Assembly: GCA_020137815.1 (NCBI GenBank)
Contig: CM035353.1
Coordinates: 5,146,001-5,210,000, forward strand
Direction of reading: 5' to 3'
Source: Hormiphora californensis
Lineage: Eukaryota > Animalia > Ctenophora
Length of the DNA: 64,000 nt
Part shown: in pieces, positions 7,197 through 63,033 of the stretch
Position numbering within the stretch: the stretch's first letter is position 1
How the letters are laid out: the number at the start of each line of letters is the position of its first letter
Translations under genes and position numbers: made by a program
The notes under the pieces: generated by a model
What the model was told of the DNA's origin: nothing
The model's database searches: none
Seen by the model: only the letters and a program-made list of their open reading frames with translations

Positions 7197-7493
7197 TGCC
7201 AGGTGTCTATGTCACCAATTGGACAAAGTCATTAGAGTAATCCTGCCTCAAGTCCTTTGGTATAAAAACTTATTTTGTTATTGGACCATGCCAGGATTTT
7301 GAGTTGCACATTGGGCGTCCTGGTGGGTTTGGTGTGAAGGTTTGTTTTGTGCTGTTAGGTGACTGCTTTGACCAGTGACTGCGAGAATAGGGTCAGGCTA
7401 ATGCTCTGACAGGTGCTGCTGCACTGCAGCTATGAGCCAACTGGGCCGTGTGGGCTGGGAAGTTGCTCCATGTGTGAGCTCGCAGCATGAGCA

Positions 7494-8935
<1,442 letters not shown>

Positions 8936-9150
8936 TGTGCCTCCTCTTTATCTCGATTACCACCGAGTTTTTTGCGGACGCGGTTTTGTATTATTTACGC
9001 TGCGAATAGCTACCGCGCGCGCGGCTTAGGGTTAAATTTTATTTCGTTTTTAAAGATTTTTTGCGACGCGAGATCCAGATTTTAAATCTTCAGATTTCAA
9101 ATTTATCGGCATTCGGCAAAATGCAAGGGCGTCAGGCGAGGGGAATACAG

Positions 9151-30732: not shown

Positions 30733-32040
30733 TTAATCTGTTATTAAACAATGGGGCCTCCATCCAGCTCCTGGTAGCCCGATGAGAGATTAATGTAAGA
30801 CAAAGATGGTAAAACATTCAATTTACCTCGTAATTTACAGTCGCCGTATCACTAGTTTTACCTATCAATACCCCCGGGTAACTCCTGTTGCTGATTGCAT
30901 TTCCAACAATTATAACATGACCCTTATTATAGAGCACATCTCTGGGGGAGATATGGGCCAGCAGATGCTGCTAATTTTTCTTTTCAAGCTGTGTTATTTT
31001 CTGTGCTATTTTCTGATGGAATAAACTTATCTAAATATCATTATCGGGGTAGGCAGAACAATAGGAATAATCCCGTTGGTTCTCGCCGACCTCCTCCTTC
31101 TCCCTCTGCTAATTCCCTCTAGATACCCCATAGAATATCTAGATGAGGGTCAGTCCTAACTCACTCCCCATCCGAATTGACCCACTGCCTACCCCTCCAG
31201 TTATTCTTCTTCTTCTTCTGGGAGGACGCTGGCTAGTGCGAAGCACTAGCCAGTAAGGGGTGGGTGCCATGAGGCTCCCGTTCCCCGTCCTGGGTGGTGT
31301 GGCTGGTATGTTGCCAACTGCTTCGGCCCAAGGAGACTTGGGGAGCTGGTGCCATACCAGGTCACAAGGGAAACCTCCCTTTAAGGGGTGGTTTCAGGGG
31401 GGTGAAGTATCTCCATCGCCTTCTTATAGAACGAGATCGTTTTTCTAAGGGGTTGATGGTGTCTAATTTCGTACATGCTGAGGCCCAGCCTGTCAAAGGA
31501 TTCCTGTCGGAGTTTCCAAAGGGCGGGGCATTCAGTAAGTACATGCTTTATTGTCTCGTCTTCCATCCCACATGCTGCACAGGTTGTGGTCTCGACTTTT
31601 TTTAATTTTTTCATGTGGTAGTTAAGGTGGCAGTGCCCTGTGAGTAGGTGTGTCGCCGCCCTTAGGTCTGTTCTATTAAGTTTTTGAAGAGGTCTCTCAT
31701 ATCTTTCGGTCCACATCATGTCCATATGTTTGGTTTGTTTGATGGGTCCGGTTTTAACCTTCTCCCTGAGGGCTGCATAGGCTGCCGCTTTGGGAATCGG
31801 TATGAGAGTAACTTCTTCGATTTCCTGAGCACCCCTTTTTGCCAAGATGTCTGCTATTTCGTTTCCATCGTACCCTTGATGGGCCGGGATCCATCTAATC
31901 ATGACATCGTTGAATATGGCTAGGGTGTTCAGATTTTTGATAGTCTTTATCGTGGTTTTTGATCTGCATGTCGTGGAGTCTAGGGTCTTTATTGTCCCTT
32001 GACTGTCACAGTTTATGAGTATTCGCTCGTTAGCTGTTCC

Positions 32041-32783
32041 GGGGGGTACGTCACCTTTTTTTTGCCCACTGCCCACATTATTCTTAAATTTTGAATTTGC
32101 CCACATGGGCAAAAGTGGGCAAAAGTAGGCAAAAGTAGGCAAAAAATTTAAATCCATAAAAAATATATGCTATCAACCAGGTAATCGTCTGTGACAAAGG
32201 TTTTTCACCACCAATGTCCTCCTAGAGGTCCCCCCTATCGATTCCAACCGATAATTTATTTGCTCAGGGTTGATAAGGCTCCATATCCAACTGGGAAAAT
32301 GGGCAAAATATGTTGGCAAAATTAGGAAAATTGGTCATTTTAGGCACGTTTCTCACATGGTTGGAGTGGAAAATTTTTCTGGTTTTTCTGGGACCCCATT
32401 GGAGTACAATGCAAGTGGAAAACCTTTGTTATGTATCAGTTCCCTAAATAGCCCCAAAATGACGAAAAATCACTGGCCTTTGCCTAATTTTGCCTAATTT
32501 TTTTGCCCACTTTTGTCCAGTCGGACATGGAGCCTTATCAACCCTAAGTCATAAGTAAGTACATTAATATTCGGTTGGAATCGATAGAGGGGACCTCTTG
32601 GAAGACATTGGAGGTGAAAAACATTTGTCACAGAGGGTTTTCTGGTAAATTTTTGATGGTTATAATATTTTTGCCCACTTTTTGCCCACTTTGCCCACAT
32701 TATACCTGTTTTTTGAGATTTTGGTTTGCCCATGTGGGCAAATGTGGGCAAAAGTGGGCAAAATAAAAGGTGACGACCCCCCC
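32041..32783. mobile_element. MITE with GG termini, 8(-9)-bp TSD and TTTGCCCAC subterminal repeats (Merlin/MULE-like), inserted in the RNase H coding region
   Basis: TIR ggggggtacgtcacctttt ... aaaaggtgacgacccccc; TSD gctgttcc at 32033-32040 and 32784-32791. Confidence 0.88.
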
Positions 32784-35620
32784 GCTGTTCCCCTATCCAG
32801 GAGATATTGAGCCGTCTGTTGTATGGCATACATTTCTGCCGCCGGGACAGTTCCTTCGGGGCCTAGGTTATACGAATTTCGAGCTAGCTCTGTTTCGCCA
32901 GAGTGGATAATGTATCCTGCACCGGCATTGTTGTTAATTTTTGACCCATCAGTGTGTGCAACTATCGTGTACTTGTCTCCATCCTCCAAAAACGTCTCCC
33001 TTTCTGGGATCTCTAACGAGAATTCCCTGTCTAGGGTGAGTTCCGGGGTTGTGAGATCGTGACATCTGCCCTCTGCTTCCAGAGTTCTGAGATCACGTGA
33101 TACCGTATTGGCATGCGAAGTGAACACTTTTGGGGTCTTTAGGTCTGATTTTATTGGCCCTTCCCATTCTCCCGTTGCCATTAGGGTGTATGCAGTTTTG
33201 GCTGCACAGTACCTCAGATGGTCGGTGATCGGGGCGGTGTTTGTGATTGTGTCTAGGGCTGTTGATGGCGTCGAGGGCATGGCCCCAGTTACCATCTTGA
33301 GTGCTAGCCTCTGTACCCTTATCATGTTTTCTTTGTTTGTTTTGGTTCGCATTGCATTAGCCCAGACCATTGCCCCGTAGCATAAGGTGGGTCTCACTAT
33401 TGCAGTGTATATCCATAGGGCCGTTTTAGGGTTTAGTCCCCACGTGGGTCCCACCACTTTACGGCACTGCATCAGGATATTTTTTGCTTTTTTTATTTGT
33501 TTGTTTACGTGATCGTTCCAGTTCAGTTTGCTGTCAAGGGTAATCCCTAGAAACTTCGTGGATTCGGACACTTTGATAGGGTTACCCTGAATTTTGATCG
33601 GGTTTCCAATTTTCACATTTTTTCGATGGGTGAATATGACTACATGCGATTTCAGGGCACTTAGTTTGAGCCCTACTGTCTTACACCAGGCGTTTATGGA
33701 ATTAAGCCCCTTCTGGGTCGCGTCCCTTAGAGGGAGTATGTCCGCAGAGGGTCCATTTCTTCCGGAGGGCATTGTGGTTGCTACTATATGACATAAGTCA
33801 TCCGCAAAGCCCTGTAGTTCACCTGGTATATTCTTTTTGCTATGGTTTAGTAGATCGTCCATTACCAGGTTCCATAGGAACGGGGAAAGTATTCCTCCCT
33901 GGGGACAACCCCGGGTGGCTCTTATAGTAAGGGACTCTTCCATTAGGTTCGTGGTTATTTCGCGGTTTGAGATCATGTAGGTGATCCAGACAGCTGTTCT
34001 TTTGTCGCGTAGCTTTGCATGAAGGGCTCTTTCCATAGCTTGGAATGCCACATTATCGAAGGCTCCCTCGATGTCCAAGAACGTACCCAGGGCAATGCCC
34101 TTGTGCATGAGGGTGCCTTCGAGTTTGCGTACTACTTTATGGAGGGCTGTTTCTGTTGAAACGCCTCTTCTAAATCCATATTGCGACTTGTTTAATTTTT
34201 TGTGTACTTTTTGGTCTACCTCAATGTGCCATAGAATTAACCGTTCCATGAGTTTGTGGAGGTTTGACGCAAGGGTTATTGTTCGGTATGATTTAGGCAT
34301 CCGATAGTCATCCTTTCCTGGCTTGGGCAGGTAGATGGCTTCTGCTTCCTGCCAGGATTTGGGGGTTACCCCTAGACTGTACGATGCCTTAGCTATCTTT
34401 GCAAATGGTCCAGCAATAATGTCTGCTACTTTTTGCATCATGATGGGCCTGATGCCATCCGGCCCAGCAGCTGTTAAGGGTTTAAATTCCCTCAGCGCCT
34501 TGATGATACGTGTTTTCGAGAATGTTTTTTCATCAGACCACTCCCCTTCTGGGGCTTCAGTTTTGTCCTTGAGGGAGGGTCTAGTTGAGTGGTCCTCGCC
34601 AAAGTGAACCTCTGCCATTATCTGGAGGGTTTCTTTAGGGGACTGTGATAGTTCACCATTTGCGTCAAAGATACAGCTGAGATTATAATCTTTACTGTTC
34701 TTGAGCACTTGGCTAACCTTCTGGGCATCTGAATATGCATCGAGATCTTCAGCCCATATTTTCCAGTTTTTAAATTTAGACTGGTTTTTGGTTTTTGTGT
34801 ATTTGTTTCGAGCTGTTTTTGCTGAGTCCCAGTCCTGATGCACTTTCGTGGTCTGGGCGTGTCTCAGTTTATCAAACATTTCTTCCCTAGCTGCCTTGAC
34901 CTCCCCACTGAGCCACGGGGGGTCTTTGGAGTGGGCGGAAACGTATGTTTTTGGGGTACACTTGTAGTATGCCCACAGCATCAGTTCTATTAGTTTTTCG
35001 TTGGCTGTTTCAAGTTCTTCGGCGTTTGATATTACCATTTCTGTCAGGCCTGTTTCTTCTAGGCCCTTTTCCACAAGTTGTCTATATAGGGCCCAGTTTG
35101 TTTTCTTAATATTGTAGAATGAGCGGATCTTGCTACCGTCCATGTCCCTCAACACAAATGTGATGGGTACGTGGTCGGATCTGCATTTTCCTTCTACTGT
35201 CTGCCAGTCTTGTATCATGTCCAGTGCATGGTTGTTGGTCATGGTAAGATCTAGCACATTTTTTCTTGTTCCATTGTCGAAAGTGTGGGGGCAATTCACG
35301 TTCGATACATGCAGATCAAGATCTACAATGGCATCTAATAGTGCATCTCCCCTTTTCTTCCCAATAGGATCTTTAACCAGTGCCCCCCAACTAGTGTTGT
35401 GGGCGTTGGTATCAGATCCAATTACTAGTTTCAGGTTATTTCTTTTTGCGTGGGCTGCCAACTCTCCTAGTAATTTAGGAGGGCATTCTAGCTCTCTGTC
35501 CATGTACATTGAGCATAAAATGACTGATTTGGTGCCCAGTTTGACAAGGATAGTGACTGTGTCCCTGTCAGTGAATTTGTCAAGGAGAAATACGTTCCTC
35601 CCTAGGTTACTATTGATTAA

Positions 35621-37009
35621 GGGTACGCTAACCAAAATGTTTTTTCGAGTGCAGGGAAATCTCTCACCGTAGGGTTGTAGGCCATGCCAAGGAGACCTCA
35701 AATATGCAATTTGAGCTCTCAAGTCGAATTCATATTTTTGCTACAGCTGCTTGAAAAATGAACTGAAAATAAGCTTTTGGCATCTCAAAAAATTTTTTTC
35801 AAAGATAGGAGCATGAAAATTTGGGGATTTGAAGAGGACATGAAGGTGAATAACCACAAAAATTTTTTTTGCAATCCGAGCTGATTTCTGGTCCTGAGAT
35901 GGATTTCTTTTTTTCCACTTTAACGCCCTATTTGGCAAAGTTCCGAAAACATGTGAAAGCTGTAAATTGGTGAAAAGTTGCGTCTAACAATTATCTAAGT
36001 GGCCATAAATTTTGGGCGTGTCCTTATTTGAGATAAGCTGTACGGAGTTTTTTTGTGAAAGCCGTCATTTCAGAAATAAATAAATTCCCTGTATCTCAAA
36101 AACGGCTGATCGTAGAGACCTGAGACTATGCTTAAACGATTCAGAAGGTCCGATTTTGGGGGGGTCTTCTGAGAGACATTTTGCTCCTACTTCAACCGTT
36201 TTTGCTGTAATTGCGAAAAACAAATTCTATGAAAAGGGCAAAAGCCAAACTCCAATATCCTGTAATTAGGGAATTTTAGCTAATGAAGGACCGAAACTAT
36301 GGAAAACTGTTTAACAAGCTAATTCCTTCACTATTTGGTCCATATGGGTCCCTATAATCATCAAAAACAAAATCACAAAAAATCCACGATGGCGAAGATG
36401 GGTTATTGTTTTTCGCAATTACAGCAAAAACGGTTGAAGTAGGAGCAAAATGTCTCTCAGAAGACCCCCCCAAAATCGGACCTTCTGAATCGTTTAAGCA
36501 TAGTCTCAGGTCTCTACGATCAGCCGTTTTTGAGATACAGGGAATTTATTTATTACTGAAATGACGGCTTTCACAAAAAAAACTCCGTACAGCTTATCTC
36601 AAATAAGGACACGCCCAAAATTTATGGCCACTTAGGTAATCGTTAGACGCAACTTTTCACCAATTTACAGCTTTCACATGTTTTCGGAACTTTGCCAAAT
36701 AGGGCGTTAAAGTGGAAAAAAAGAAATCCATCTCAGGACCGGAAATTAGCTCGAATTGCAAAAAAAAATTTTGTGGTTATTCACCTTCATGTCCTCTTCA
36801 AATCCCCAAATTTTCATGCTCCTATCTTTGAAAAAAATTTTTTGAGATGCCAAAAACTTATTTTCAGTTCATTTTTCAAGCAGCTGTAGCAAAAATATGA
36901 ATTCGACTTGAGAGCTCAAATTGCATATTTGAGGTCTCCTTGGCATGGCCTACAACCCTACGGTGAGAGATTTCCCTGCACTCGAAAAAAAATTTTGGTT
37001 AGCGTACCC
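35621..37009. mobile_element. 1.39-kb foldback TTAA MITE, copy 3 (spacer inverted relative to copies 1 and 2), inserted in the LINE endonuclease
   Basis: TTAA at 35617-20 and 37010-13; same TIRs as copies 1 and 2. Confidence 0.93.
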
Positions 37010-43442: not shown

Positions 43443-45989
43443 GAGAAATAGGTAGGGAGAGAAATAGGTAGGGAGAGACAGGTAGATACAGGGAGAGAGA
43501 TTATAAAGGGATAGGGCCGAAGGATAGGAGATGTTGGCAGTGAAATTAGTAGAGATAGTCTAGATAGCTGAGATGGTCATTTGATTATTTCCATTGAGAA
43601 ATTTGTTGGTGACCACTCGTCGGTCTCGTTGCTATAGCTATGTGGGAGGCTTTGTAAAGTAAGTAGATATCTAGTTAGTAAATTTTTAAAGGGGTTAAAG
43701 AAGTAGTCCTTGAGATGGCGTTGTGATGTTTTTTATTATTATTATCTGTGTTGAGGGTGGCATTTGCACATGGCACGATATGATTATACAGAATAGGGCC
43801 TATGTAAGCAGCCTGTCTTTTTGATCGCTCTAGTCGGAACTCGGGAACATCGAGTATTTTAATTGGGAGACTAGTGGATCTAGTGTAATACTGGGGCGCA
43901 GAGGTGGGGGATGTTGGAGAGAATAGTAACTGGATGTTGTCAGGAGCAACTTTTAGTCTGGTTTTTTGGATTAAACATAGGATTGATTTTGTGATGATGT
44001 TGGGTAGTGCTAAAAGTTTGTGGGCGGTGAAGATAGGTTTAGTGTGGGAGGGGATGGTACCTGATTTGCTGTCGTAGAAGAGTCTGGATTTGCTATTGAG
44101 GGCCCTGACACCTTTTTTTTGGGCCGAGAATAATGGTTTCAGTGAATTCTGGGATGCGGTTCCCCAAACGGATGCACAGTAGAGCAGATGTGATTCGATA
44201 AAGCTGTTGTAGAGGCACTTGAGAGACTTGAGAGGCAGTACTCCTCGCATTTTGTATAAGATGCCTGCGTTGCGACCTACTTTTGCGGCTAGCGCTGTGA
44301 CATGATGTTTCCAGCTTAAATTAGAGTCTATGATTACCCCGAGGAACTTAGCATGATCGGTCGCTATTATTTTGACGCCTCCGAGATGGATTTGTAGTTC
44401 GGAGACTCGTGATCGATCCCTGTTGGTGAATACGAGAAGCTTTGTTTTGCCTATATTGAGTTTAAGCCCGTTACCGCCAACCCATCTATCCACCGCGAGA
44501 AGAGCTCGGTTGACTCTCTCTTCTAGCTCTTCGAAACTGTCGGCTGATATGATGAGATTGGAATCGTCCGCGAATATGAAGAATTTGGCTAAAGGAACTG
44601 CAGCTGGAAGATCATTAATATAGATAAGAAATAGAGTCGGGCCCAGATTTGAGCCCTGGGGAACGCCGTGTTTTATGACACGATCTTCGGAGTTATTGTT
44701 ATTGACACAGACATATTGCATTCTTTGACGCAAGTAAGACGAGAACCATTCTAGGTTGCTACCTCTGACTCCGTAATGCTCTAATTTATGTAAGAGAAGA
44801 CGGTGATCTACCATATCGAAGGCCTTGCTAAAATCTAATAGGAGTAGTGCGGTTACTTTTTTGCGTTCGAGGGCTCGGATAATGGCATTTTGTGCTTCCA
44901 GAATAGCGTGCTCGCAGGAATGTGACCTTCTGAAACCATATTGTGATGTGAATAAAATATTATTAGTGTTTAAGTGCTTCGTAAGGCGGGTTAACATAAT
45001 TTTTTCATAAATTTTTGAGAATGTGGGAAGTAGAGAGATTGGTCGGTAGTTGGCGATATCTGTGCGTGAGCCCTGTTTGAATAGGGGAATGACTTTGGCT
45101 TTCTTTAATTTACTGGGGAAAATACCCTGGGCGAGGGATGCCGCTACTGTGTGTTGCAGGATATTGGAAATGGGATCTACTGCGGCTTTTAGAGGTGCTA
45201 TTCCCGTGTCGGAGGTTGCTCGTATTTTCAGCGACTTAACAGTCTCTTTTATTTCTAGTACTGTTACGGGTTCTAGCGACATGTTAGATTTACATCTTGT
45301 ATCTGGCGAGAGGCTAGGTTGAGAGCAGGAAGGGTTACTGGAAGAATCTTTTAGTTTCTGTGCTATGTTGGTGAAGTAGTCATTGAACGCCTCAGCTATT
45401 TTCGTGTTGCTGGTTATAGTTTCGCCTTCATAGTCAATCTTACTGATCTGAGCTTTGGCCTTACGTGTTCTATTCAGGAGCTGGTTTATTAATTGCCATT
45501 GCTTTTTGCAATCACTACTATGACGTTCCATGTACTGATTGTAGTAGCGGTGTTTTGCAATACGTATGTGTTTATCTACAAACTTTTTCATACGTGTGTA
45601 ATAAAATTTGTTTTGAGGAGAGGGATGGAGGACAAATTTGCTGTAAAGGCGATTTTTGCGGGCACACGCACAGCGCAGCCAATCAAGAATCCAGGGTTTA
45701 TTCTCCCGTTCCTTGCGTCGCTTTGGTTTACTAAGGGGAAAGCATTTATTGTAGACACGTGTGTATTCTTCATAAAATTTATTGAATTTTTGGTCTGCAT
45801 CTTCTACTAGGTTCAAAAAGTCCCAGTCGATATTATTGATTTCATGGACAAAATTCTGGGTGGCCTGTGTACAGTACTATAATAGCGAGTTATTACAGGG
45901 GCCGCTATTACAGGGCCTCGCTATTACAGTACTGTAATAGTGAGTTATTACAGTACTGTAATAGCGTGTCGAGATTCTTCCGACCTGCC
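42142..45989. mobile_element. Palindromic MITE (~1.04 kb without its insert), GG termini, 8-bp TSD (Merlin-like), carrying a nested LINE
   Basis: TIR ggcaggtcggaagaatctcgacacgctattacag; TSD gattctgt at 42134-42141 and 45990-45997; repeats of ctattacagtactgtaatag. Confidence 0.9.
43063..45870 (-). mobile_element. 5'-truncated CR1/L2-group LINE with intact RT ORF (43675-45816, open to the truncation point)
   Basis: KPW, NYRPISLLPTFSKIYEK, QYGFR, LDFSKAFD, GVPQGSNLGP, FADD, FLGV. (CT)n in the 3' UTR and a (GATT)n tail. Splits host ctatt|acagta with no TSD. Confidence 0.93.
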
Positions 45990-47378: not shown

Positions 47379-48004
47379 TATTAGAGCATATTGTTTTCTT
47401 CACCGGTTCCGAGATAGGATGGTGAAGTAGGAGTGCCCCTAATGGGGGTGAGAGGATTAGGTGGAGTTAATAGAGGGAATAGAACTGAATTGTGGATTTG
47501 GGGTGGAAACGGAGTGTGATACAACCCCCCCCCCCCCAATCTGTCTCTCTGTTCACCTGGGCATTAATGAGCTTTAACGCCAAAGAGAAATGACCTCGTT
47601 TTAGCCCTTTTAGGTTTTCGTCGATCTCATCCTGGGGGTGGATCTCATCCTGGGGGGGGAGTTAGAGGGAATATTAAGTGATATCAAAACACAGCCCCCC
47701 CCCCTCAATCTTTCACTCTCCTCTGTTTACCTGGTTACTGGCCGTCACGGTTCGGGTTGGGTTCCGGTTTGAAACGTATAACATTGTTTCTTTTATCCTT
47801 CAGTGATATTCTTTCTCTGGTAATCAGGAGTCGGTGTGCTCTCATGATCCCAGCATAGGAAGGAAGGAATTTTTAAGGAATTGGTTGGTCTTCATAACTT
47901 CCTCGCCTAAACACTAGTGTAGAACAGCGTTGGTTGGTGTTTGACGGAAGGATTTTATGAGGTCCCCTGCTGTCCAGTCCACGTTGTTATGGGGAAGGTG
48001 GTTT

Positions 48005-48364
48005 AGAAGATATTGGGAGATATGTTGATGCAATTAGCATCAGAATTTGATGCCAGGTTTCTCCAGTACTCAACCTATCTCCCAATATCGTCAGACTCAG
48101 TCTAAACCGCCTGGGAGTGGAGCAAAAACTCTCGGAAGCCAGATTATAGATTTGACTTCAGTGTCAATTTTGACCCACTTCCTGTTGACAGACAAACTTC
48201 TGGGGTATTTTCCAGTATATTAGGATCAATTTGTAGTCTTTTGCGACAAACCGGATGCAAATCGATCCAGTGGATCGCGTGCAACATCCCTTGAAAGAAA
48301 CGACCCTTTTTTGGGGGCGGAGCGGATACCTGTGTGCGGGGTCGCGCCAGGTGTCTGTCACCAA
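48005..48364. mobile_element. Partial (right-half) copy of the TTGGTGAC MITE family
   Basis: Similar to ~51925-52332; ends in gtcaccaa. Confidence 0.8.
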
Positions 48365-49251: not shown

Positions 49252-49485
49252 ATACGTGATACCTACGAATCACGTCGTCACACTGACGGATCACATCGTC
49301 ACACTGACGGATCACGTCGTCACACTGACGGATCACGTCGTCACATTGACGATAGGGTGTTACATTTCCGTGATACCTACGAATCACGTCGTCACACTGA
49401 CGGATCACATCGTCACACTGACGGATCACGTCGTCACACTGACGGATCACGTCGTCACATTGACGATAGGGTGTTACATTTCCGT
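49252..49485 (+). repeat. 21-bp minisatellite arranged as two ~114-bp higher-order units
   Basis: ggatcacgtcgtcacactgac repeats; block duplicated at ~49256 and ~49370. Confidence 0.9.
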
Positions 49486-49772
49486 GCAAATTTGCATTAG
49501 ATATAGTTAGATAAGCGATAGACATGGTAAACTAGTAATCACATCATAATATATTGATTGAACTTGTCGATAGTTGTATCAATACTCGACTTTGTTTGTT
49601 TTATTTATTCCCATGCCTCTCTTGATCTAAGCGGGCCGGCGTCTTTCTTTCTCTTTATGCTTTTGTTTTTAGCTTGCTTAATTTGTCGTTCATGATATAG
49701 CAGCGCTGTTAGAACTAGCATTCTATCATGATCATCTTTGTTCTCTTCAGGTTTTGCGTTGTGCCCTCTTTG

Positions 49773-50321: not shown

Positions 50322-50442
50322 GTTAGTATTGATATAAATAGGGTATGAATCGTTATACCACCGTTAGATTTAGCGAATTATTGATCTGGTTGAATTCTAT
50401 TCCACTTTTTCCCGTGTGAACACTAAAATGATATAATTTCAG

Positions 50443-50988
50443 GGGGGAGACTACTCGGGTTGGAAGGACCATCAGTTCACCGAGAAAATAGACGGCAACT
50501 GCACTGAAGCACATAGACTGGCTGATAGTGGTGACCACGAGAAACTCGGTCAGCTTTTACAAGTCGCAAAATCTAAGAGACTAACGGAAAAGGTGTTACT
50601 GGCAAGAAATGGTTTTAATTGTACACCACTGATCCGTGCTTGTCATAATAATCACTATAAAACTGTGAAAATGCTACTTGATGCTGCAACAGAGCATTCA
50701 GAAGCTTTACTTAGGGATATGCTCTTGGCAGAGAACGAATATGAAACGGCATTACACTGTGCTAAAAAGACGGGTGACGAGAATTTGGTGAAGCTGCTAC
50801 TGACTACGGCAAATCAGGCGAATACATTACTAGAGGCCATCCTTCTGAAAAAAGATAAAGGGGGGAACACACCGTTGTCCTCACAACGACAGCAACAGTT
50901 GATACAAGCGCTGCGTGATCGTACGGGAATGATGAAGTTGTCGATTGGTGAAATTTCAACTAATAATGTGGCTGAAACTAGTACTGAG
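50443..50988 (+). CDS. TRPA-like channel, duplicated ankyrin-repeat exon (182 codons)
   Basis: Stop-free and paralogous to 60229-~60810. Ends ...ACT GAG|gttagt in phase 0, compatible with the 60229 acceptor. Confidence 0.7.
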
Positions 50989-51655
50989 GTTAGTATTGAT
51001 AACTGCGCTGGCAAGCGCAAAGGTCGCCATCCCCCACCCCCCGAAAGCGCCGCCAGAAACGAAGTTATACGATTATAGACCCCGCTGGCTCAAATAGACG
51101 CCCGCCCCGCGCGAACAATTTGCACTGGTCTATTGGACCGTGCACTGCCGTGAGTTTGTGTCTCGATAGACGCACGCCCTCTCACAGATTTGTGTAAAGA
51201 TCACAAAGAATCACTGGAAACACGATAAAATGACATGACAACACAAGAGGGAGTGTGTGTACAACCAACTAAGCTCTCTGTCTAGATTTGGCGCCCGCCA
51301 GTCTGTTGGCAACTGTTCCTCTTGACCCACAATTAACTGTTATCTCTCCCTGCATTCCACCCTTTTGATTTGTTCAAACGATTGGTACGAGTGTATAGGA
51401 ATGTAGAGAGGCACTTTGTAGCTTCATTTCCAACTATTTGACCCGTTTTGTGTGAGCTCTCTGTTTGAAAACCACGTAAATTGTGCTTGTTTTGCTTCTA
51501 GGTGCCCGCCAGCGGGGTCTATAGAATACAACTCCCTCCCTTGCGTGCAGATATACCTGTAAACCCCTCGCTGACGCTCGGGATTTACAGGGCTGTAACG
51601 CACGGGTCCCGAAGGGACCCGTGCATTACAGCTCAATAGACGCACTGCTCTGCAG

Positions 51656-52332
51656 TTGGTGACATAGACACCGTGCGCGACCAAGATTGAGCTCACACAC
51701 AGGTGTCTGCTCCGCCTCAAAAAGGGTCGTTTCTTTCAAGGGATGTTGCACGCGATCCACTGGACCGATTTGCATCCGGTTTGTCGCAAAAGACTACAAA
51801 TGATCCTAATATACTGGAAAATACCCGAGAAGTTTGTCTGTTAACAGGAAGTGGGTCAAAATTGACACTGAAGTCAAACCTATAATCTGGCTTCCGAGAG
51901 TTTCTGCACTACGCCCATGCGATTTAGAAGATATTGGGAGATATGTTGATGCAATTAGCATCAGCTATTAATGCCGGGTATTTTCCAGTACTCACAAGAG
52001 TTCAACCTATCTTCTGAAACCCTCAGATTCATTCTACACCGTCTGGGAGTGGTGCAAAAAGGCTCGGAAGCCAGATTAGAGATTTGACTTCAGTGTCAAT
52101 TTTGACCCACTTCCTGTTGACAGACAAACTTCTCGGGTATTTTCCAGTAAACTAGGACCAATTTGTAGTCTTTTGCGACAAACCGGATGCAAATCGGTCC
52201 AGTGGATCACGTGCAATTTGGCTTGAAAGACACGACCCTTTTTTAGGGGGCGGAGCGGACACCTATGTGCGAGCTCGATCTCGGTCGCTGCGCGACCTCG
52301 ATCTCGCACGCACTAGGTGTCAATGTCACCAA
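51656..52332. mobile_element. Foldback MITE with 9-bp TSD (MULE-like), TTGGTGAC family
   Basis: ttggtgacatagacacc ... ggtgtcaatgtcaccaa; TSD gctctgcag on both sides. Confidence 0.9.
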
Positions 52333-53717: not shown

Positions 53718-54380
53718 AGGCATAAACTCTGGCCACTGGCACGTTATTTCAGATACCTTTCTCCCAGCGCGCCGCTGGGAGAAGGTAGCTGTAGTTTATC
53801 CGCCAGTGGCGGATAAACTGGTTTAAATCACGACGACGATCCCGAGGCGTAGCCGAGGGAGAGGCGGAGGGGTTTAAACCAATAACGTGCCATTGGTCAG
53901 AGTTTATGGGTTATATACCCTGCTTTAGTCGTTTGTTTCAAGTATTACACAATAACAAGAGAGAGAACACTAACGAAAACACACAAAGAGAACTGAGAAA
54001 CAGTCAAAAACATCTCTCAATTGAGTGTATAGTGTTTGGTAACAGTTACTAAGGAGAGAGAGAAAGAAATAACAAGATATGGGGCATGCCAGACATAACA
54101 CAGAGGAATTGAGATAGTGAGAAAGAAGGGGAGATAAAGAGAGAGTAATTGACGGAATGTGTTCTTTCTTTCTCTCCAATGTAGTGTGTAACTCTTGCAA
54201 ATAGTGTTCCCTCTGTATTTCAGTAAGAACTGATCATTTACACTCACTTTGAATGTAACATAGGAGTTAATAATAAATAACCTGCCAGTGGGAAATAATC
54301 TGCCGCTGGACTAGCTGTTTATTGAGAGCGCGCCAGTGGGACTTCTCGCCACTGGCGGGTTATTTAAGTTAGCAGGGTAT
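53718..54380. mobile_element. Non-autonomous element with asymmetric inverted repeats and stacked GC hairpins (Helentron- or Crypton-like)
   Basis: IR cataaactctggccactggcacgttatt / aataacgtgccattggtcagagtttatg encloses three hairpins; ataccctgct (~53915) pairs with agcagggtat (54371). Confidence 0.55.
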
Positions 54381-56152
54381 ATATGATACTATCGTCCGTA
54401 AGGGAATTCTAGTAACAAATCTAAATTGTACAAGTTTGTGGGTATTATGGCATAAATTCATGCTTTCATGAGGTTTGTAGCTACAAGTTCTACAATCGTG
54501 AACGGTTTTTACCAGGAAAAGAACCCAAATTAGAGATTTGTATCATATATGATACTATCGTCCTAATGGTAAATTCTCCTAAAACATACATAATTCGGGC
54601 TAGAAAAGGAGCTAAGAGACAAATCAGGGCACTAAAATGTGTAGAATCATCGCATTAGTGGGGGTAGAGCAAATATTTAGGTCGCTATCTGGATCCCTAA
54701 TGAGATAATTGGATAATTAGCTAATTATCTGTCCCGCGCGTGCTAATTATTCATGAAACTTAATGCTCTGGGAAGGAGTTATGAGACAAATGGGGGCACT
54801 AAAATGTGTAGAATCATCAAATTAGTGGGGGTAGAGCACATATTTAGGTCGCTATCTGGATCTATAATTGAGATAATTGGATAATTAGCTAATTAGTTGC
54901 CCTGGAGCGCTAATAAATGAGACTAGGCGGAGTATACAAGACAAGTGAGGGCACTAAAATGTGTAAAATCATCGCCTTAGTGGGGGTAGAGCTCATAGCT
55001 GAGTTTCTATTCCCACTCCTAATTGAGATAATTGGATAATTAGCTAATTGACGGTTGCACACCGTCCACTTTTCACCAAATCCCGTAGTTTCTAGGTAAT
55101 CCTGAGCTCTTTTGCTCAATCTAAGGATCTTCTGACATCCCCTAATATCCCTAAACCCCTATAACCGTGTGTCCAAACAATAAATATGGGAAACTGTAGT
55201 ACATTAGAGGTTGAACGTGTTGTAGGAGCAATAGGATATAAAAATTATATAGTATTGTAGGTGGATCTTGGATGTATGAGAGGTCTAGGATGGAGCAAGA
55301 GGGTTCTAAAGAGCTGGGCAGTGTCTAGGGTTGTATCGAGCGTATACTATTGTGTAAAACGAGTCAAAGGTGATACAAATGGGGTTAAGGGGTTGTCAGA
55401 AGATCCTTAGATAGAGCAAGAGAGCTCAGGATTACCTAGAAACCACGGGATTTGGTGAAAAGTGGACGGTGTGCAACCGTCAATTAGCTAATTATCCAAT
55501 TATCTCAATTAGGAGTGGGAATAGAAACTCAGCTATGAGCTCTACCCCCGCTAAGGCGATGATTTTACACATTTTAGTGCCCTCACTTGTCTTGTATACT
55601 CCGCCTAGTCTCATTTATTAGCGCTCCAGGGCAACTAATTAGCTAATTATCCAATTATCTCAATTATGGATCCAGATAGCGACCTAAATATGTGCTCTAC
55701 CCCCACTAATTTGATGATTCTACACATTTTAGTGCCCCCATTTGTCTCATAACTCCTTCCCAGAGCAAAGTTTCTTGAATAATTAGCACGCGCGGGACAG
55801 ATAATTAGCTAATTATCCAATTATCTCAATTAGGGATCCAGATAGCGACCTAAATATTTGCTCTACCCCCACTAATGCGATGATTCTACACATTTTAGTG
55901 CCCTGATTTGTCTCTTAGCTCCTTTTCTAGCCCGAATTATGTATGTTTTAGGAGAATTTACCCTTAGGACGATAGTATCATATATGATACAAATCTCTAA
56001 TTTGGGTTCTTTTCCTGGTAAAAACCGTTCACGATTGTAGAACTTGTAGCTACATACCACATGAAAGCATAAATTTATGCCATAGCACCCACAAACTTGT
56101 ACAATTTAAATTTGTTACTAGAATTCCCTTACGGGCGATAGTATCATATATG
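54378..56152. repeat. Large inverted repeat (foldback element): ~765-bp arms, ~245-bp spacer, internal ~135-bp subrepeats
   Basis: 54378-55143 is the near-perfect reverse complement of 55388-56152. Confidence 0.9.
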
Positions 56153-56799
56153 ATACGGCGCCTTAAATGTTAATAACTCATTCAATTTTCAATATTTTTT
56201 GATGCGGCTTTTTGCATTCGGTCGGTTATGTCGAGCACTTTTATTCCTTCAAAGGATTAGTTGTGCCCCCAAAAAACAAAAAAATGAGAAATGTTTTTAA
56301 AAAAAGGCCGAAATTAGCCTCCTTAGAAGGGCTATAAAATTTTTTTCTTGATTTTCTGAGCTGATCTGGACGTGGTTTTAGGTTCATAATCCCTAAAACT
56401 AGCTTGTAACAAAATATGGGCCACCTAGATAAAACATAAGGACTTCCAGGCCGCCTAGAATAGACTGTAGCATATATGCTCTGTCGCCGTCAAAGGGTTA
56501 AGACAAGATATCTTGTTAATCCCGATAATATTACGTCATCATTATGACGTTGTAACGTCGCGTTATGACGTCAAAATGACATCAAAAATGAAATTTTCGT
56601 AGTTTAGCTATTGCTTCGTAGTTTAGCTATTCCTTCGTTTTTCGATTAGAATCCCGATCCGTCTTCAGGAATCAGGGTGTAAAATGAGCTCAAAGAAGTT
56701 TGGTAAGAGTGTAAAAATGACGACTTTAAGACATTCTGTAGGACGTTCCTGCGGATGATGGAAAACCTCACCCGAAGTAAATGCACACACATCCAGTAG

Positions 56800-58563
56800 G
56801 ATAATGTTTTAATTATGCACTGTTCACTGCTGTAGACATCACCCACTCACTTCATACACACACAAACACCCACACACATGACCAAGCCTGTACGACAGGT
56901 TATTGATCACCGGCTGTATTACAGCACGAGAGAGCCGTCACTAGTATCGTGCAGTGATCCGAAGATCATGATAACAATTAATATGACGTGATCAACTGCT
57001 ATAGCCCAACTGTTCATTCTGAGAATTCTGATACAAAGATATTATTTGCCGTACTGATATATGAGGTAACTCCAACCCCCCAGTTTCATCTCCTTGTTTA
57101 ACATGGGAGTTACCAAGGGAATCCACTGGGTTCGATTAATCTAGGCACATACCCACAGTACTATTCGAATTGGCGTATCTTTATATCAGGAATCTCGGAT
57201 AGCAACAATCCTTGTTTGTGTGTGTATGAAGTGAGTGGGTGATGTCTACAGCAGTGAACAGTGCATAATTAAAACATTATCCTTGAAACGTGAGCACTGC
57301 TGATAATAAGAGCCCTGTCTATACGCCTAATCTGTTCAGATAGCAATAAAACACAAGGATTGTTGCTATCCGAGATTCCTGATATAAAGATACGCCAATT
57401 CGAATAGTACTGTGGGTATGTGCCTAGATTAATCGAACCCAGTGGATTCCCTTGGTAACTCCCATGTTAAACAAGGAGATGAAACTGGGGGGTTGGAGTT
57501 ACCTCATATATCAGTACGGCAAATAATATCTTTGTATCAGAATTCTCAGAATGAACAGTTGGGCTATAGCAGTTGATCACGTCATATTAATTGTTATCAT
57601 GATCTTCGGATCACTGCACGATACTAGTGACGGCTCTCTCGTGCTGTAATACAGCCGGTGATCAATAACCTGTCGTACAGGCTTGGTCATGTGTGTGGGT
57701 GTTTGTGTGTGTATGAAGTGAGTGGGTGATGTCTACAGCAGTGAACAGTGCATAATTAAAACATTATCCTTGAAACGTGAGCACTGCTGATAATAAGAGC
57801 CCTGTCTATACGCCTAATCTGTTCAGATAGCAATAAAACACAAGGATTGTTGCTATCCGAGATTCCTGATATAAAGATACGCCAATTCGAATAGTACTGT
57901 GGGTATGTGCCTAGATTAATCGAACCCAGTGGATTCCCTTGGTAACTCCCATGTTAAACAAGGAGATGAAACTGGGGGGTTGGAGTTACCTCATATATCA
58001 GTACGGCAAATAATATCTTTGTATCAGAATTCTCAGAATGAACAGTTGGGCTATAGCAGTTGATCACGTCATATTAATTGTTATCATGATCTTCGGATCA
58101 CTGCACGATACTAGTGACGGCTCTCTCGTGCTGTAATACAGCCGGTGATCAATAACCTGTCGTACAGGCTTGGTCATGTGTGTGGGTGTTTGTGTGTGTA
58201 TGAAGTGAGTGGGTGATGTCTACAGCAGTGAACAGTGCATAATTAAAACATTATCCTTGAAACGTGAGCACTGCTGATAATAAGAGCCCTGTCTATACGC
58301 CTAATCTGTTCAGATAGCAATAAAACACAAGGATTGTTGCTATCCGAGATTCCTGATATAAAGATATGCCAATTCGAATAGTACTGTGGGTATGTGCCTA
58401 GATTAATCGAACCCAGTGGATTCCCTTGGTAACTCCCATGTTAAACAAGGAGATGAAACTGGGGGGTTGGAGTTACCTCATATATCAGTACGGCAAATAA
58501 TATCTTTGTATCAGAATTCTCAGAATGAACAGTTGGGCTATAGCAGTTGATCACGTCATATTA
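56800..58563 (+). mobile_element. Retro-inserted concatemer of a 487-nt structured non-coding unit (415 bp inverted + 2.77 direct copies), 13-bp TSD
   Basis: Period 487 (57215, 57702, 58189); 56800-57214 is the reverse complement of the unit; acacatccagtag at 56787-56799 and 58564-58576. Confidence 0.85.
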
Positions 58564-58576
58564 ACACATCCAGTAG

Positions 58577-59804
58577 TTGGTGACATTGACACCTAGTGCG
58601 TGCACATAGGTGTCCGCTCCGCCCCCTAAAAAAGGGTCGTGTCTTTCAAGCCAAATTGCACGCGATCCACTGGACCGATTTGCATCCGGTTTGTCGCAAA
58701 AGACTACAAATTGATCCTAATATACTGGAAAATACCCGAGAAGTTTGTCTGTCAACAGGAAGTGGGTCAAAATTGACACTGAAGTCAAATCTTTAATCTG
58801 GCTTCTGAGCCTTTTGCACCACTCCCAGACGGTTTAGAATGAATCTGAGGGTATCAGAAGATAGGTTGAACTCCTGTGAGTACTGGAAAATACCCGGAAT
58901 TAATAGCTGATGCTAATTGCATCAACATATCTCCCAATATCTTCTAAATCGCATGGGCGTAGTGCAGAAACTCTCAGAAGCCAGAATATAGATTTGACTT
59001 CAGTGTCAATTTTGACCCACTTCCTGTTGATAAACAAACTTCTCGGGTATTTTCCAGTATATTAGGATCATTTGTAGTCTTTTGCGACGGTGGGCGGACT
59101 CTAGTGCTAACGGACTCTTTATCTAAATCCAAGGCGGACTCTATATCTAAAAACGGACTCTTTATCTACAGTTAGATTTTGAAAAAAATTTAGATAAAGA
59201 GTCCTCCCTGTGTAGACTTTTTAGATAAAGAGTCCGCCCTGTGTAGAATTTTTAGATATAGAGTCCTCTAGTACATTTTGGCGCCAAATCCTCCAATCCG
59301 GACTCTATGTCTAAAATCCTAACCCAACCCAAAACCTAACCCTAACACTAACCCTAACCCTAACCTCGAACCCAAATAACGGCCCTAACACTTCTAAATT
59401 AGTATAGGGGTAGAGCAAACTCTCGTTTCCGGCCTAACGGCCGAAATCTCGAGTTCGCGGCGAAAGGCGGACTCTATATCTAATTTAGATTTATGTAGAT
59501 ATAGAGTCCGCCTTTTGTAGACTTTTTAGATAAAGAGTCCGCCCTGTGTAGACTTTTTAGATATAGAGTCCTCCTAGAGTTTAGACTTATTTGGACTCTT
59601 TATCTAAATCTAAATTTAGATAAAGAGTCCACTGTAGACTTATAGTGTAGCACTAGAGTCCGCACACCTTTTGCGACAAACTGGATGCAAATCGGTCTAG
59701 TGGATCGCGTGCAACATCCCTTGAAAGAAACGACCCTTTTTGGGGCGGAGCAGACACCTGTGTGTGAGCTCAATCTTGGTCGCGCACGGTGTCTATGTCA
59801 CCAA
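58577..59804. mobile_element. TTGGTGAC-family foldback MITE with a nested MITE
   Basis: TIR ttggtgacattgacacc ... ggtgtctatgtcaccaa; TSD atccagtag at 58568-58576 and 59805-59813. Confidence 0.9.
59089..59668. mobile_element. Longer copy of the GGTGGGCGGAC MITE (9-bp TSD) containing (CCCTAA)n-like repeats
   Basis: TSD ttttgcgac at 59080-59088 and 59669-59677; same TIR as 6891-7196. Confidence 0.9.
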
Positions 59805-60228
59805 ATCCAGTAGATCTACCAGCTAGTGAAAACGAGACGTTTCTATCTTTTTTCGTTTGGCGTGAATATGGTTTATATAATCAATAAACCCTTGCTTTTA
59901 ATAGTGGGCGGGTATATCAGACAAACTTTCACCCGCTGATATTTATAAAAAGCGACTCCGATGCGTGCGCTGTGCGTGCGTGCCTGTTACACTGAATCTT
60001 CAGCAAATCGGACCACTGATCTGTAACTTCAGTCCCAGATGAGATAGAGACTTCAAATTTTAAACCGGGTATACATTTCAAGTGAAAGAGAGCCACGCTA
60101 GCGGCTCTTTTTGGGGGAGGGGAATGACAACCTTTACGCTTTCCAGAGTAGTAATAGGGTGTAAATCGAATTGGTTATATTCTATTCCACTTTTTTCCGG
60201 CGGGAACACTAAAATTATATAATTTCAG

Positions 60229-63033
60229 GGGGGAGACTACTCGGGTTGGAAGGACCATCAGTTCACCGAGAAAATAGACGGCAACTGCACTGAAGCACAT
60301 AGACTGGCTGATAGTGGTGACCACGAGAAACTCGGTCAGCTTTTACAAGTCGCAAAATCTAAGGGACTAACGGAAAAGGTGTTACTGGCACGAAATGGTT
60401 TTAATTGTACACCACTGATCCGTGCTTGTTATAATGCAAAGGAAAATGATAGTACAAAGCAATACAAAACTGTGAAAGTGCTACTGGATGCCGCAAAGGA
60501 TTCAGAATATTTGATCAGGGAGATGCTCTTGGCAAGTAACGCTTATCCAGAAACAGCATTCCACTGTGCTGCAAAAAGGGGTCATACGGACGTGGTGAGG
60601 CTGCTACTGACTACGGCAAATCAGGCGAATCAAAAATTACTAGAGAACATCCTCCTGCAAAAAGATAAAGTGGGGCTCACACCATTACACGCTGCTTTCA
60701 ACACTAAGCCTGTAGTTTTTAAGGAGATACTGAATGTGATTCTTTCGAAACCACAACAACAGAAACAATTGATACGAGCGTTGCTTGAGAATGATCGTAC
60801 CGGAATGATGGCGTTGATACAAGCTAATATAATTGGTGATGCACAGCTATTAAGGGACATACTAAAGGCACCGCCCATGGCTTCAGACAACCCGATCAGA
60901 CACATGATGACACAGTTGATAGAAGAGGTACTGGACGAGGACGAATCAAATATAAACGATGTGCTTTTGTCAAAGGAAAAGCATACTAAAAACACACCAC
61001 TCCACAAAGCTTCGTCTGAAGGTGACAGCTTTACTGCCAACCTGGTACTTGATAAAGCGAAAAGCAAAGGATTCCTAACACTACAAGACGTCCTCCTTGC
61101 AGTAAACAAGAACGGCGAAATTCCGCTACATGTCGCCTCAAAATATGACAAAGTTGGTGTGATTGAGCTGATGATGAAGATGGATTCCGTCCTTAAACAA
61201 AACGAGGAGATAGTGGATGAGGAGGCAGGACGTACTGGTTCAAGTGAACCTGATTGCACCGTTTTGAAGCGGAAGATGCTTATAGCTAAAGACAACCAAG
61301 GATATACACCGCTAGACCTTGCCAAAAATAACGATTGTAAAAAAGCGGGGGAATTATTAAAAAAGTTCACGGATAAGGACATAACATATCTGTTGAATGT
61401 TAAAATACGGAATTGGGAAAGTTCAATAGATGATATGATCAAGTTGAACGCGAAACCTGAAAATGATAAACTGTACCTGGATCGCTGTATCGATATTGGT
61501 TCAGGGGATGCAGTAGATAAATGGCTGGTCGCCTTGTACAGAAAGTTTCAGGAGGGACAGAAAGGACATTGTAGTGAGGATTATGATAAAGAAATGGAGT
61601 TTTGGAAAGAAGCTTTGCAACTCGTGTCACCGGAACTTGCTGTTAAACACCTTCCTGAGACTGTAGGTATGGTCTTGGACGCTTCACTAATTGGTGTTGA
61701 ACAAGAAAAACACTGGGTAATAATGAATTTTAAAACGCTAGAAAGATTACAGGAAAACAGAACGCGAACGTTTCTGGATCTCATCGTAGAGGAGTTCGAG
61801 TCTAAAGGAGATTTATCTCATGATAAGTTTCTATCACATCCTGTGGTGGAGCAACTTATCAAGATAAAATGGATGCAAGTTGGACAAATCTGGTTTTTGT
61901 TGTCCCTACTGATGCTTCTTTCCTTTTTGGTAATGCTGATTGTCGCAGCATATCCAACAGCGAAAATTCCGAATGATATAGGGGAATTGATAGCGAAAAA
62001 TGAAACGGATCATATTGAATACCCGACAGAGGCCGAAGTTACAGCCCTGGAAATTGTTCTTTTCACTATGTCCGTATTAAGGTTGATTGGAGAGATTTTT
62101 GATTTTATCTATTCCATTACTGATCATTTTAGCTGTATTGAAGGAGTAGAAAAGAACGCAAAAAGATCAGGGTGCAAGAAAGAAAGAAAATTTTTTCAAA
62201 ATCTTAAAGCCTACTTCTCTAACATAGATAACGTCACTGAGCTTATCCTCTACTTCAGTACAATTGTCTATGTGTGGAGTGGTGAATATCTTTGGTGCAA
62301 AAAGATGTTTGCTTTCGTAGCCGTCACTTCTGGTTTTTGGAACATGTTTCTTATATCTCGATATGTTCCACATATCGGAATTTATTATATCATGTTCCTT
62401 CGAATTTTAAAAACATTTTTTTGGATTATTCCACAAATGGCATTTTTTCTCGTTTCGTTTACAATAGTTTTCACATTCGCGATTAATGATGATATAGTTA
62501 ACTTTGCAAGCAGTGGAAAGCCATATTATTGGGTGTGGACAAGATTTTTTAGTAGTTTGGAGTATGACGTTATTGACATAAACGAAGAAGAGAGAAGCGT
62601 ATATCTGGCACTTGCTACATTTTTCATCTTTGGTTTACTGATTAATCTTATTTTGTTAAACTTAGTAACTGGACTGGCGATAGATGATGTTCAGAAAATC
62701 AGGACTGAGTCAGAGAAACAAGAGAAAATAGGTCAGATTAAAATGATAAGTATCGGAGAAAAAATTTGCTTTTATCTAAATAAAGTAAGTTATCTAGGCA
62801 TTTGTAAATGGATAGAGGCATTAATACCAAGGCAACCCGATGTTTTTAATGGTCCAATGAAAGATTTTTCGGATGAAGGTATTACTAAAATGTATGCCAT
62901 CACCTCTAGAAAGTTCTACAATACTATTGAAAACGGGAAAGTAAAGTTGCAAGAAGAAGTGAAGAAGTTGTCTGATGAAAATGTTAATGTCCTGGTACAG
63001 ATGGCACAAGCTATGACTGTACATAGCGCTTAA
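60229..63033 (+). CDS. TRPA-family cation channel, main exon (ankyrin repeats + six TM segments + TRP-like helix/coiled coil), 934 codons
   Basis: Stop-free from an aatttcag acceptor. Ankyrin motifs (TPLH, TAFHCAA, TPLDLA), pre-S1 LSHPVVEQLIKIKW, S4-S5 GIYYIMFLRILKTF, S6 LLNLVTGLAIDDVQKIR. Confidence 0.92.
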   Translation, partial: GGDYSGWKDHQFTEKIDGNCTEAHRLADSGDHEKLGQLLQVAKSKGLTEKVLLARNGFNCTPLIRACYNAKENDSTKQYKTVKVLLDAAKDSEYLIREMLLASNAYPETAFHCAAKRGHTDVVRLLLTTANQANQKLLENILLQKDKVGLTPLHAAFNTKPVVFKEILNVILSKPQQQKQLIRALLENDRTGMMALIQANIIGDAQLLRDILKAPPMASDNPIRHMMTQLIEEVLDEDESNINDVLLSKEKHTKNTPLHKASSEGDSFTANLVLDKAKSKGFLTLQDVLLAVNKNGEIPLHVASKYDKVGVIELMMKMDSVLKQNEEIVDEEAGRTGSSEPDCTVLKRKMLIAKDNQGYTPLDLAKNNDCKKAGELLKKFTDKDITYLLNVKIRNWESSIDDMIKLNAKPENDKLYLDRCIDIGSGDAVDKWLVALYRKFQEGQKGHCSEDYDKEMEFWKEALQLVSPELAVKHLPETVGMVLDASLIGVEQEKHWVIMNFKTLERLQENRTRTFLDLIVEEFESKGDLSHDKFLSHPVVEQLIKIKWMQVGQIWFLLSLLMLLSFLVMLIVAAYPTAKIPNDIGELIAKNETDHIEYPTEAEVTALEIVLFTMSVLRLIGEIFDFIYSITDHFSCIEGVEKNAKRSGCKKERKFFQNLKAYFSNIDNVTELILYFSTIVYVWSGEYLWCKKMFAFVAVTSGFWNMFLISRYVPHIGIYYIMFLRILKTFFWIIPQMAFFLVSFTIVFTFAINDDIVNFASSGKPYYWVWTRFFSSLEYDVIDINEEERSVYLALATFFIFGLLINLILLNLVTGLAIDDVQKIRTESEKQEKIGQIKMISIGEKICFYLNKVSYLGICKWIEALIPRQPDVFNGPMKDFSDEGITKMYAITSRKFYNTIENGKVKLQEEVKKLSDENVNVLVQMAQAMTVHSA

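Follow-up and report, generated by a model that had tools for sequence, protein, structure and literature searches.

The window, i.e. the whole stretch of DNA that was analysed, comprises 64,000 nt from the ctenophore Hormiphora californensis (assembly GCA_020137815.1, contig CM035353.1, positions 5,146,001 to 5,210,000, forward strand). It carries a TRPA/painless-like channel (60223-63033, plus strand), which lies nearly whole in one 936-codon frame and whose sole close relative, probably from the ctenophore Pleurobrachia, is 78% identical. A diverged, partial TRPA-like duplicate (50437-51078, plus strand; 84% over 518 nt) is located 10 kb upstream. A LINE whose 1026-codon open frame encodes both endonuclease and reverse transcriptase (32660-35740, minus strand; RNase H piece at 31381-32169, minus strand) and a second LINE-type reverse transcriptase frame of 733 codons (43675-45876, minus strand) were also found. 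Between the partial duplicate and the channel lies an insertion built from a 487-nt unit (56787-58576), which we analysed here. Its features are as follows, with unit positions numbered from window position 57213:

56787-56799, plus strand: left copy of the 13-bp target-site duplication, the last 2 nt common to the inverted arm
56798-57215, minus strand: inverted arm, 418 nt, RNA-sense 3' end (position 71) toward the left duplication
57213-57215, no strand: junction of the head-to-head inversion (unit positions 141-143 against 1-3), with 3-nt microhomology
57213-57699, plus strand: unit copy 1, 487 nt, 42% GC, non-coding, without known ribozyme
57246-57272, plus strand: look-alike of the motif at positions 352-378 (unit positions 34-60); the left arm ends 11 nt behind it
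57325-57564, plus strand: predicted long branched stem (unit positions 113-352)
57544-57582, plus strand: pile-up motif, candidate recognition element (approximately positions 332-370), just upstream of the ends at 378 and 381
57601-57612, plus strand: hairpin with C(UUCG)G tetraloop, on the plus strand only
57700-58186, plus strand: unit copy 2, no difference from copy 1
58187-58564, plus strand: partial unit copy 3, positions 1-378, 3' end toward the right duplication
58564-58576, plus strand: right copy of the 13-bp duplication, the first base common to the unit
58577-59804, no strand: foldback element, more diverged, starting exactly where the 13-bp duplication ends

Structure of the insertion

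A preliminary description of the locus had reported 2.77 head-to-tail copies of a 487-bp unit, and this array was borne out: it extends over 57213-58564 with a period of 487 and 2.78 copies (2.8 in TRF). The whole array differs by one substitution, which had been placed near 58367; it was found at exactly this position, in partial copy 3, and falls in a CpG. The inverted piece of the unit was confirmed with a length of 418 nt instead of 415 bp; it is 100% complementary to the unit and spans unit positions 141-487 and 1-71. The 13-bp duplication said to bracket the whole is present as well; in the window, its sequence occurs only at 56787 and at 58564, the chance of such a duplication being approximately 3e-6 with 5 nt slack per side. 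Microhomology amounts to 2 nt at the left junction and 3 nt at the inversion, as described previously, and the right junction adds 1 nt. Further copies of the unit were not found elsewhere in the window.

Two claims held in part. An open reading frame of at least 60 aa had been denied, which is correct for ATG-initiated frames (longest: 37 aa) and incorrect for a 65-codon stop-to-stop frame on the minus strand. A coding circle was rejected, as the longest frame read round the circle on both strands has 65 codons. The insertion had also been assigned to a TRPA intron. The TRPA-like frame does lie behind an acceptor-like AG, and no upstream exon of it was found; an insertion site inside a TRPA intron is thus only plausible.

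The unit family in read data

The 487-nt unit is a young multicopy family. The unit or part of it was present in 20 of 24 listed sequencing runs from 12 studies, including two samples of one organism; runs X3, X16, X19 and X20 enter via the run listing alone, X19 and X20 with a small share. It is high-copy in the DNA runs X1 and X5, in support of the dispersed multicopy family that had been predicted. From a flank contig depth of 407 in X5 and joint depths of 9-31 in X1 we infer approximately 100-300 copies, depth not being equal to copy number. Most family copies carry an allele that is 2 nt shorter at unit positions 44-46, while all four window copies carry the minority allele (at most ~23% in X1 and ~1.5% in X5), which suggests that all four derive from a single template source. 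The flank contig of X5 halts exactly at 56799 and thus branches at the end of the duplication, which is consistent with a polymorphic insertion site. With unit motifs, scans of viral collections (performed twice) and of prokaryote genomes gave no match, and all six matches of a metagenome scan were attributable to chance.

Diverged sister sequences, some of them more abundant than the unit, share unit positions 137-180 (58323-58366; runs X8 and RNA run X17) and 332-370 (approximately 58518-58556). More abundant contigs sharing ~332-370 and a diverged sister sharing 137-180 would fit a unit that merely forms part of a longer coding Penelope-like element, as its terminal repeat or a fragment of its end, the locus then being a truncated tandem. 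We regard this as very unlikely, given that the unit closes on itself in run X2, extends over 462 nt in one contig of run X8 and stands here three times in a row without a coding piece.

Polarity of the joints

Both arms of the insertion turn plus-strand 3' ends (unit positions 71 and 378) toward the duplications, and their other ends meet head to head. In the read data, joints were counted among the rows listed, namely 15 of the 26 joint rows and 12 of the 13 filler rows. These contained 12 unit-internal joints from two DNA samples: seven head-to-head inversions (449|482, 378|92, 378|312, 296|78, 203|200, 367|371 and one at ~253), five deletion rows (four distinct) and not a single tail-to-tail joint. 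Six of the seven inversions are clear, the one at ~253 being ambiguous since it was read through filler letters; one deletion row is likewise ambiguous, an 'opposite strands' row taken as a deletion. The ratio of 7:0 corresponds to p = 0.016 if detection is symmetric. A single tail-to-tail joint was read in RNA run X18 at a depth of 2 and may be a library artefact. Head-to-head joints without tail-to-tail counterparts suggest that a single RNA strand, and not DNA, served as template for the cDNAs at the two cut ends. The arm polarity and these joints hence support the earlier proposal of reverse transcription from a plus-strand multimeric or circular RNA, and the recurrence of head-to-head inversions in the family supports priming from both cut strands.

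The same counts bear on repair capture, in which a nick or break at the foldback end would have been patched by template switching from a DNA array or circle of the unit, the 13-bp repeat being a repair duplication. The duplication indeed ends exactly at the first base of the foldback element, which is more diverged and likely older than the insertion, as its arms are ~86% complementary compared to 100% for the unit insertion; microhomology of 1-3 nt at the junctions would fit as well. However, a DNA template offers both strands, yet seven head-to-head and no tail-to-tail joints were found among the rows listed from DNA runs, and the inversion pattern recurs throughout the family. Repair capture thus appears unlikely to us.

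A further possibility is that the RNA owes its mobility to a LINE rather than to a Penelope-like element, with twin priming as proposed for L1. We consider this quite unlikely: the window does contain two LINE-type reverse transcriptase frames, but the unit shows no similarity to the LINEs of the window, and the insertion has neither a poly(A) or repeat tail nor a single 3' end. Multimers are not known as a usual product of SINEs either, which also counts against a LINE. The geometry agrees with the twin-priming model (PMC10760644): L1 5' inversions share with our locus the head-to-head inversion, the microhomology join and the position within a duplication, whereas the insertion here lacks poly(A) and consists of a multimeric unit.

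Insertion ends and candidate start motifs

Genomic 3' ends were found at unit positions 71 and 378 (window) and 381 (run X13; its flank has no match in the window). The best internal repeat of the unit (34-60 versus 352-378) was recovered in 8 of 8 scoring settings, and each of the three ends follows one of its two copies at a distance of 0-11 nt. The post hoc p value for this arrangement is 1.5e-4, or 1.4e-3 when the non-fitting RNA-library ends at 368 and 407 are counted. An ancient internal duplication as origin of the repeat was rejected as not significant, 15-79 of 200 shuffles matching it. In X8, extra contigs pile up on positions ~332-370, with a summed depth of up to 921 versus 146 (depth bins on copy 3, 58498-58553). 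We treat positions 332-378 as a lead, namely a candidate recognition module with a putative function. Loose ends with mixed flanks additionally pile up near positions 55-60 (16 contigs in X1 and nine in X5, among the 18 of 544 loose-end rows listed), which is partly caused by a nearby indel. Taken alone, 5' ends show no clustering (p = 0.44) and 3' ends only a weak one (p = 0.11); pooled, 5 of 17 ends lie within 15 nt (p = 0.015). The claim that copies begin and end at arbitrary phases is therefore doubtful, since three genomic 3' ends and one pile-up lie behind look-alike motifs, albeit in a small number and post hoc.

The position of the ends is also informative with regard to a non-autonomous Helitron-like rolling-circle DNA element, of which concatemers or DNA circles would have been integrated. 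Helitrons end in a hairpin shortly before CTRR, and the unit has a CTAG at positions 412-415 with a hairpin 11 nt in front of it; the presence of the unit in a viral metagenome could be read in the same direction. Helitron insertions are not known to be accompanied by target duplications, though, while our insertion is flanked by 13 bp and ends elsewhere than at a fixed 5' end and a hairpin-CTRR 3' end. No pile of loose ends was seen at 415/416 among the rows listed, whereas the fixed end of another element at 59089 gave one. Moreover, Helitrons have fixed ends and integrate between AT or TT (PMC10288648). We hence judge a Helitron-like origin highly improbable.

RNA features and the question of a circle

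Fold z scores of the unit were -3.7 (plus) and -4.7 (minus) in linear form and -4.9 (plus) and -4.5 (minus) in circular form. As 8 of 34 control windows fold with a z of -3.7 or better, the fold was rejected as sufficient proof of an RNA function. All wobble pairs in the three long helices of the predicted stem are G-U on the plus strand. A UUCG tetraloop is stable and would form on this strand only. A common variant at position 227 preserves pairing, while one at 320 disrupts a pair of the plus-strand fold. In this predicted fold, G-U pairs, UUCG loop and the variant at 227 favour the plus strand as RNA sense. Unit positions 238-291 (57450-57503) could form two mutually exclusive helices (238-247/254-264 or 242-250/283-291), a possible conformational switch.

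Known processing signals were sought in the unit. An exact hammerhead core is absent from both strands, and a relaxed search yielded degenerate pairs without a full fold. Scans for HDV-like, twister, pistol and hairpin ribozymes gave nothing convincing; these motif scans, like that for the hammerhead, used consensus patterns. Rfam ribozymes had no match at E values up to 10, and snoRNA-type Rfam matches were dismissed as sub-threshold only. Back-splicing was rejected given two donor-like sites and no acceptor-like site, and so was a tRNA head (no ARAGORN gene; no plus-strand B box within one mismatch).

In run X2, a random-primed run that we guess to be RNA, the unit closes on itself (515 nt = 485 + 30 nt overlap, depth 7.5). 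Nothing was found there on neighbouring repeats, with 5 of 30 bins covered compared to 14 in the DNA virome X13, X2 having been chosen for its unit content. This pattern suggests that the unit was enriched, be it as RNA or as a circle, but tandem DNA would yield an identical contig. The unit forms one or two contigs in each of three RNA runs, and such contigs cannot separate a circle from tandem DNA. The foldback element is absent from RNA runs X15, X17 and X18; as these were chosen for unit content, its absence was not counted. A contig of RNA run X15 (unit positions 172-368) jumps from 368 to a variant of ~121. It may represent a 247-nt sub-circle that corresponds to the long stem, or else an allele with a deletion.

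A more far-reaching reading would make the unit an abundant, covalently closed RNA circle of ~485 nt in the ctenophore, either ribozyme-free or with a ribozyme of unknown type and one of several related structured circles. Its copying, round and round from both cut strands, would be the work of a Penelope-like reverse transcriptase, and the unit would be an animal retro-circle whose closure requires no hammerhead. We regard this as rather unlikely.

Relation to known mobile elements

Animal retrozymes are defined by a hammerhead and tied to Penelope-like elements (PMC7229834; bioRxiv 10.64898/2026.07.22.740005). Our unit resembles the non-LTR retrozymes of animals as described there: it is short, non-coding and self-paired with less than 50% GC, occurs multicopy in short tandem arrays without LTR and with a long duplication, and its length of 487 nt falls within the retrozyme range of 51-972 bp (bioRxiv 10.64898/2026.07.22.740005). 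Dependence on Penelope-like elements has been proposed for retrozymes as well (PMC7229834; bioRxiv 10.64898/2026.07.22.740005). In contrast to them, the unit lacks a type I hammerhead, their defining motif, and the viroid- and retroviroid-like agents are set apart by RNA-to-RNA replication and by self-cleaving ribozymes, of which no known type was detected on either polarity. Retrozymes are further marked by abundant monomer RNA in linear and circular form, to which the closed contig of X2 and the one or two contigs in each of three RNA runs would have to be compared. The earlier assignment to retrozymes or retroviroids is thus not supported. A tRNA-derived SINE would show a tRNA-like head with A and B boxes and a fixed 3' tail, neither of which was found. 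The element works like a retrozyme or a non-autonomous Penelope-like passenger, yet fails the retrozyme definition.

Its two-armed architecture is already known from Penelope-like elements, for which partial tandems beside an inverted copy have been described as a signature (PMC8557442). Naiad and Chlamys are hammerhead-free, Naiads occur in two ctenophores, and non-autonomous Chlamys elements are arranged head to tail (PMC8557442). Chlamys passengers such as MRC1 are, like our unit, non-autonomous, multicopy and head-to-tail, in a clade mostly without hammerheads; unlike it, MRC1 stems from a green alga and has 3'-end similarity to an autonomous family, which was not found for the unit (PMC8557442). 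In line with this, nine short unit motifs searched for an autonomous partner had no meaningful match in the Naiad/Chlamys supplement (PMC8557442). With a Penelope-like protein in purified form, cleavage and extension of both strands and an internal start were shown, ribozyme cleavage being dispensable (PMC11167929). Naiads and other endonuclease-bearing Penelope-like elements agree with our locus in the partial tandem with an adjacent inverted, truncated copy, the variable duplication, the presumed internal start, the presumed extension of both strands and the occurrence in ctenophores, and differ in that the unit has no coding frame and its target is not a TA microsatellite (PMC8557442, PMC11167929). 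The family adds seven further head-to-head joints to this likeness. The two preferred ends lie far apart here (180/307 nt between the two 3' ends of the window insertion), unlike those of the purified element, which are adjacent (PMC11167929), and in place of the 30-40 nt tail of endonuclease-bearing Penelope-like insertions (PMC8557442, PMC11167929).

We consider the locus to be, with fair probability, a young insertion of a non-autonomous Penelope-like passenger that was reverse-transcribed from plus-strand RNA with several units in a row. This is suggested by the plus-strand 3' ends of both arms facing the duplications, the seven head-to-head and zero tail-to-tail joints among the rows listed, the genomic 3' ends at 71, 378 and 381 behind internal repeat copies, the loose ends near 55-60, the minority allele common to all four copies, the fold with its G-U pairs and UUCG loop, and literature on tandem-plus-inverted, hammerhead-free Penelope-like insertions, on Naiads in ctenophores and on the purified protein. 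Several findings count against it: neither an autonomous partner nor a helper element was found, the two ends are not adjacent, 8 of 34 control windows fold at least as well, the right duplication ends exactly at the likely older foldback element, the minus strand folds about as well as the plus strand (z -4.7) and variant 320 breaks a pair, X18 holds a tail-to-tail read, ends cluster weakly and the internal repeat is matched by shuffles.

Mechanistically, a helper endonuclease would nick both target strands 13 bp apart, and each free end would prime reverse transcription at a preferred internal RNA site, behind 378 and behind the look-alike ending at 60, respectively. One cDNA would cover 2.78 units and the other 0.86 unit, their far ends being joined via the 3-nt microhomology. 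If a passenger was inserted in this way, a read-through multimer from another array would be its probable template and a circle the less probable one.

Why should such an element matter? Definition and detection of animal retrozymes are based on the hammerhead, so that ribozyme-free passengers would be missed by such screens. A ribozyme-free animal tandem passenger or a ctenophore retrozyme was not found among the papers listed in searches of the openly accessible literature. If the family moves like a retrozyme without a hammerhead, this would support a dispensable role of the ribozyme in Penelope-type mobilisation. Its hundreds of young, near-identical copies would allow start sites to be mapped directly and a choice to be made between circular and multimeric templates, a question that concerns retrozymes and Penelope-like elements alike. 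If circles exist, their processing step would be new.

Neighbouring elements

The foldback element next to the insertion has its own 9-bp duplication, consisting of the last 9 bases of the 13-mer, and a foldback sister element likewise carries a 9-bp duplication of its own. Both belong to a high-copy foldback family whose members have terminal repeats in common and are flanked by 9-bp duplications; we take it to be Mutator-like, and it is represented at 58577-59804, 51656-52332, 48002-48364 and near 7210. The copy at 58577 contains a nested element (approximately 59089-59669) with telomere-like 6-mer repeats. A palindromic element of 1.77 kb (54379-56151) has arms that are 98% alike and internal subrepeats of 155-167 bp. 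Perfect short tandem duplications were also observed at 1-645 (296 bp, 2.2 copies) and 49255-49486 (114 bp, two copies). The window further contains a TGTC-type microsatellite of 1.4 kb (7494-8936) and a sulfotransferase-family frame (PF03567; 46764-47399, minus strand).
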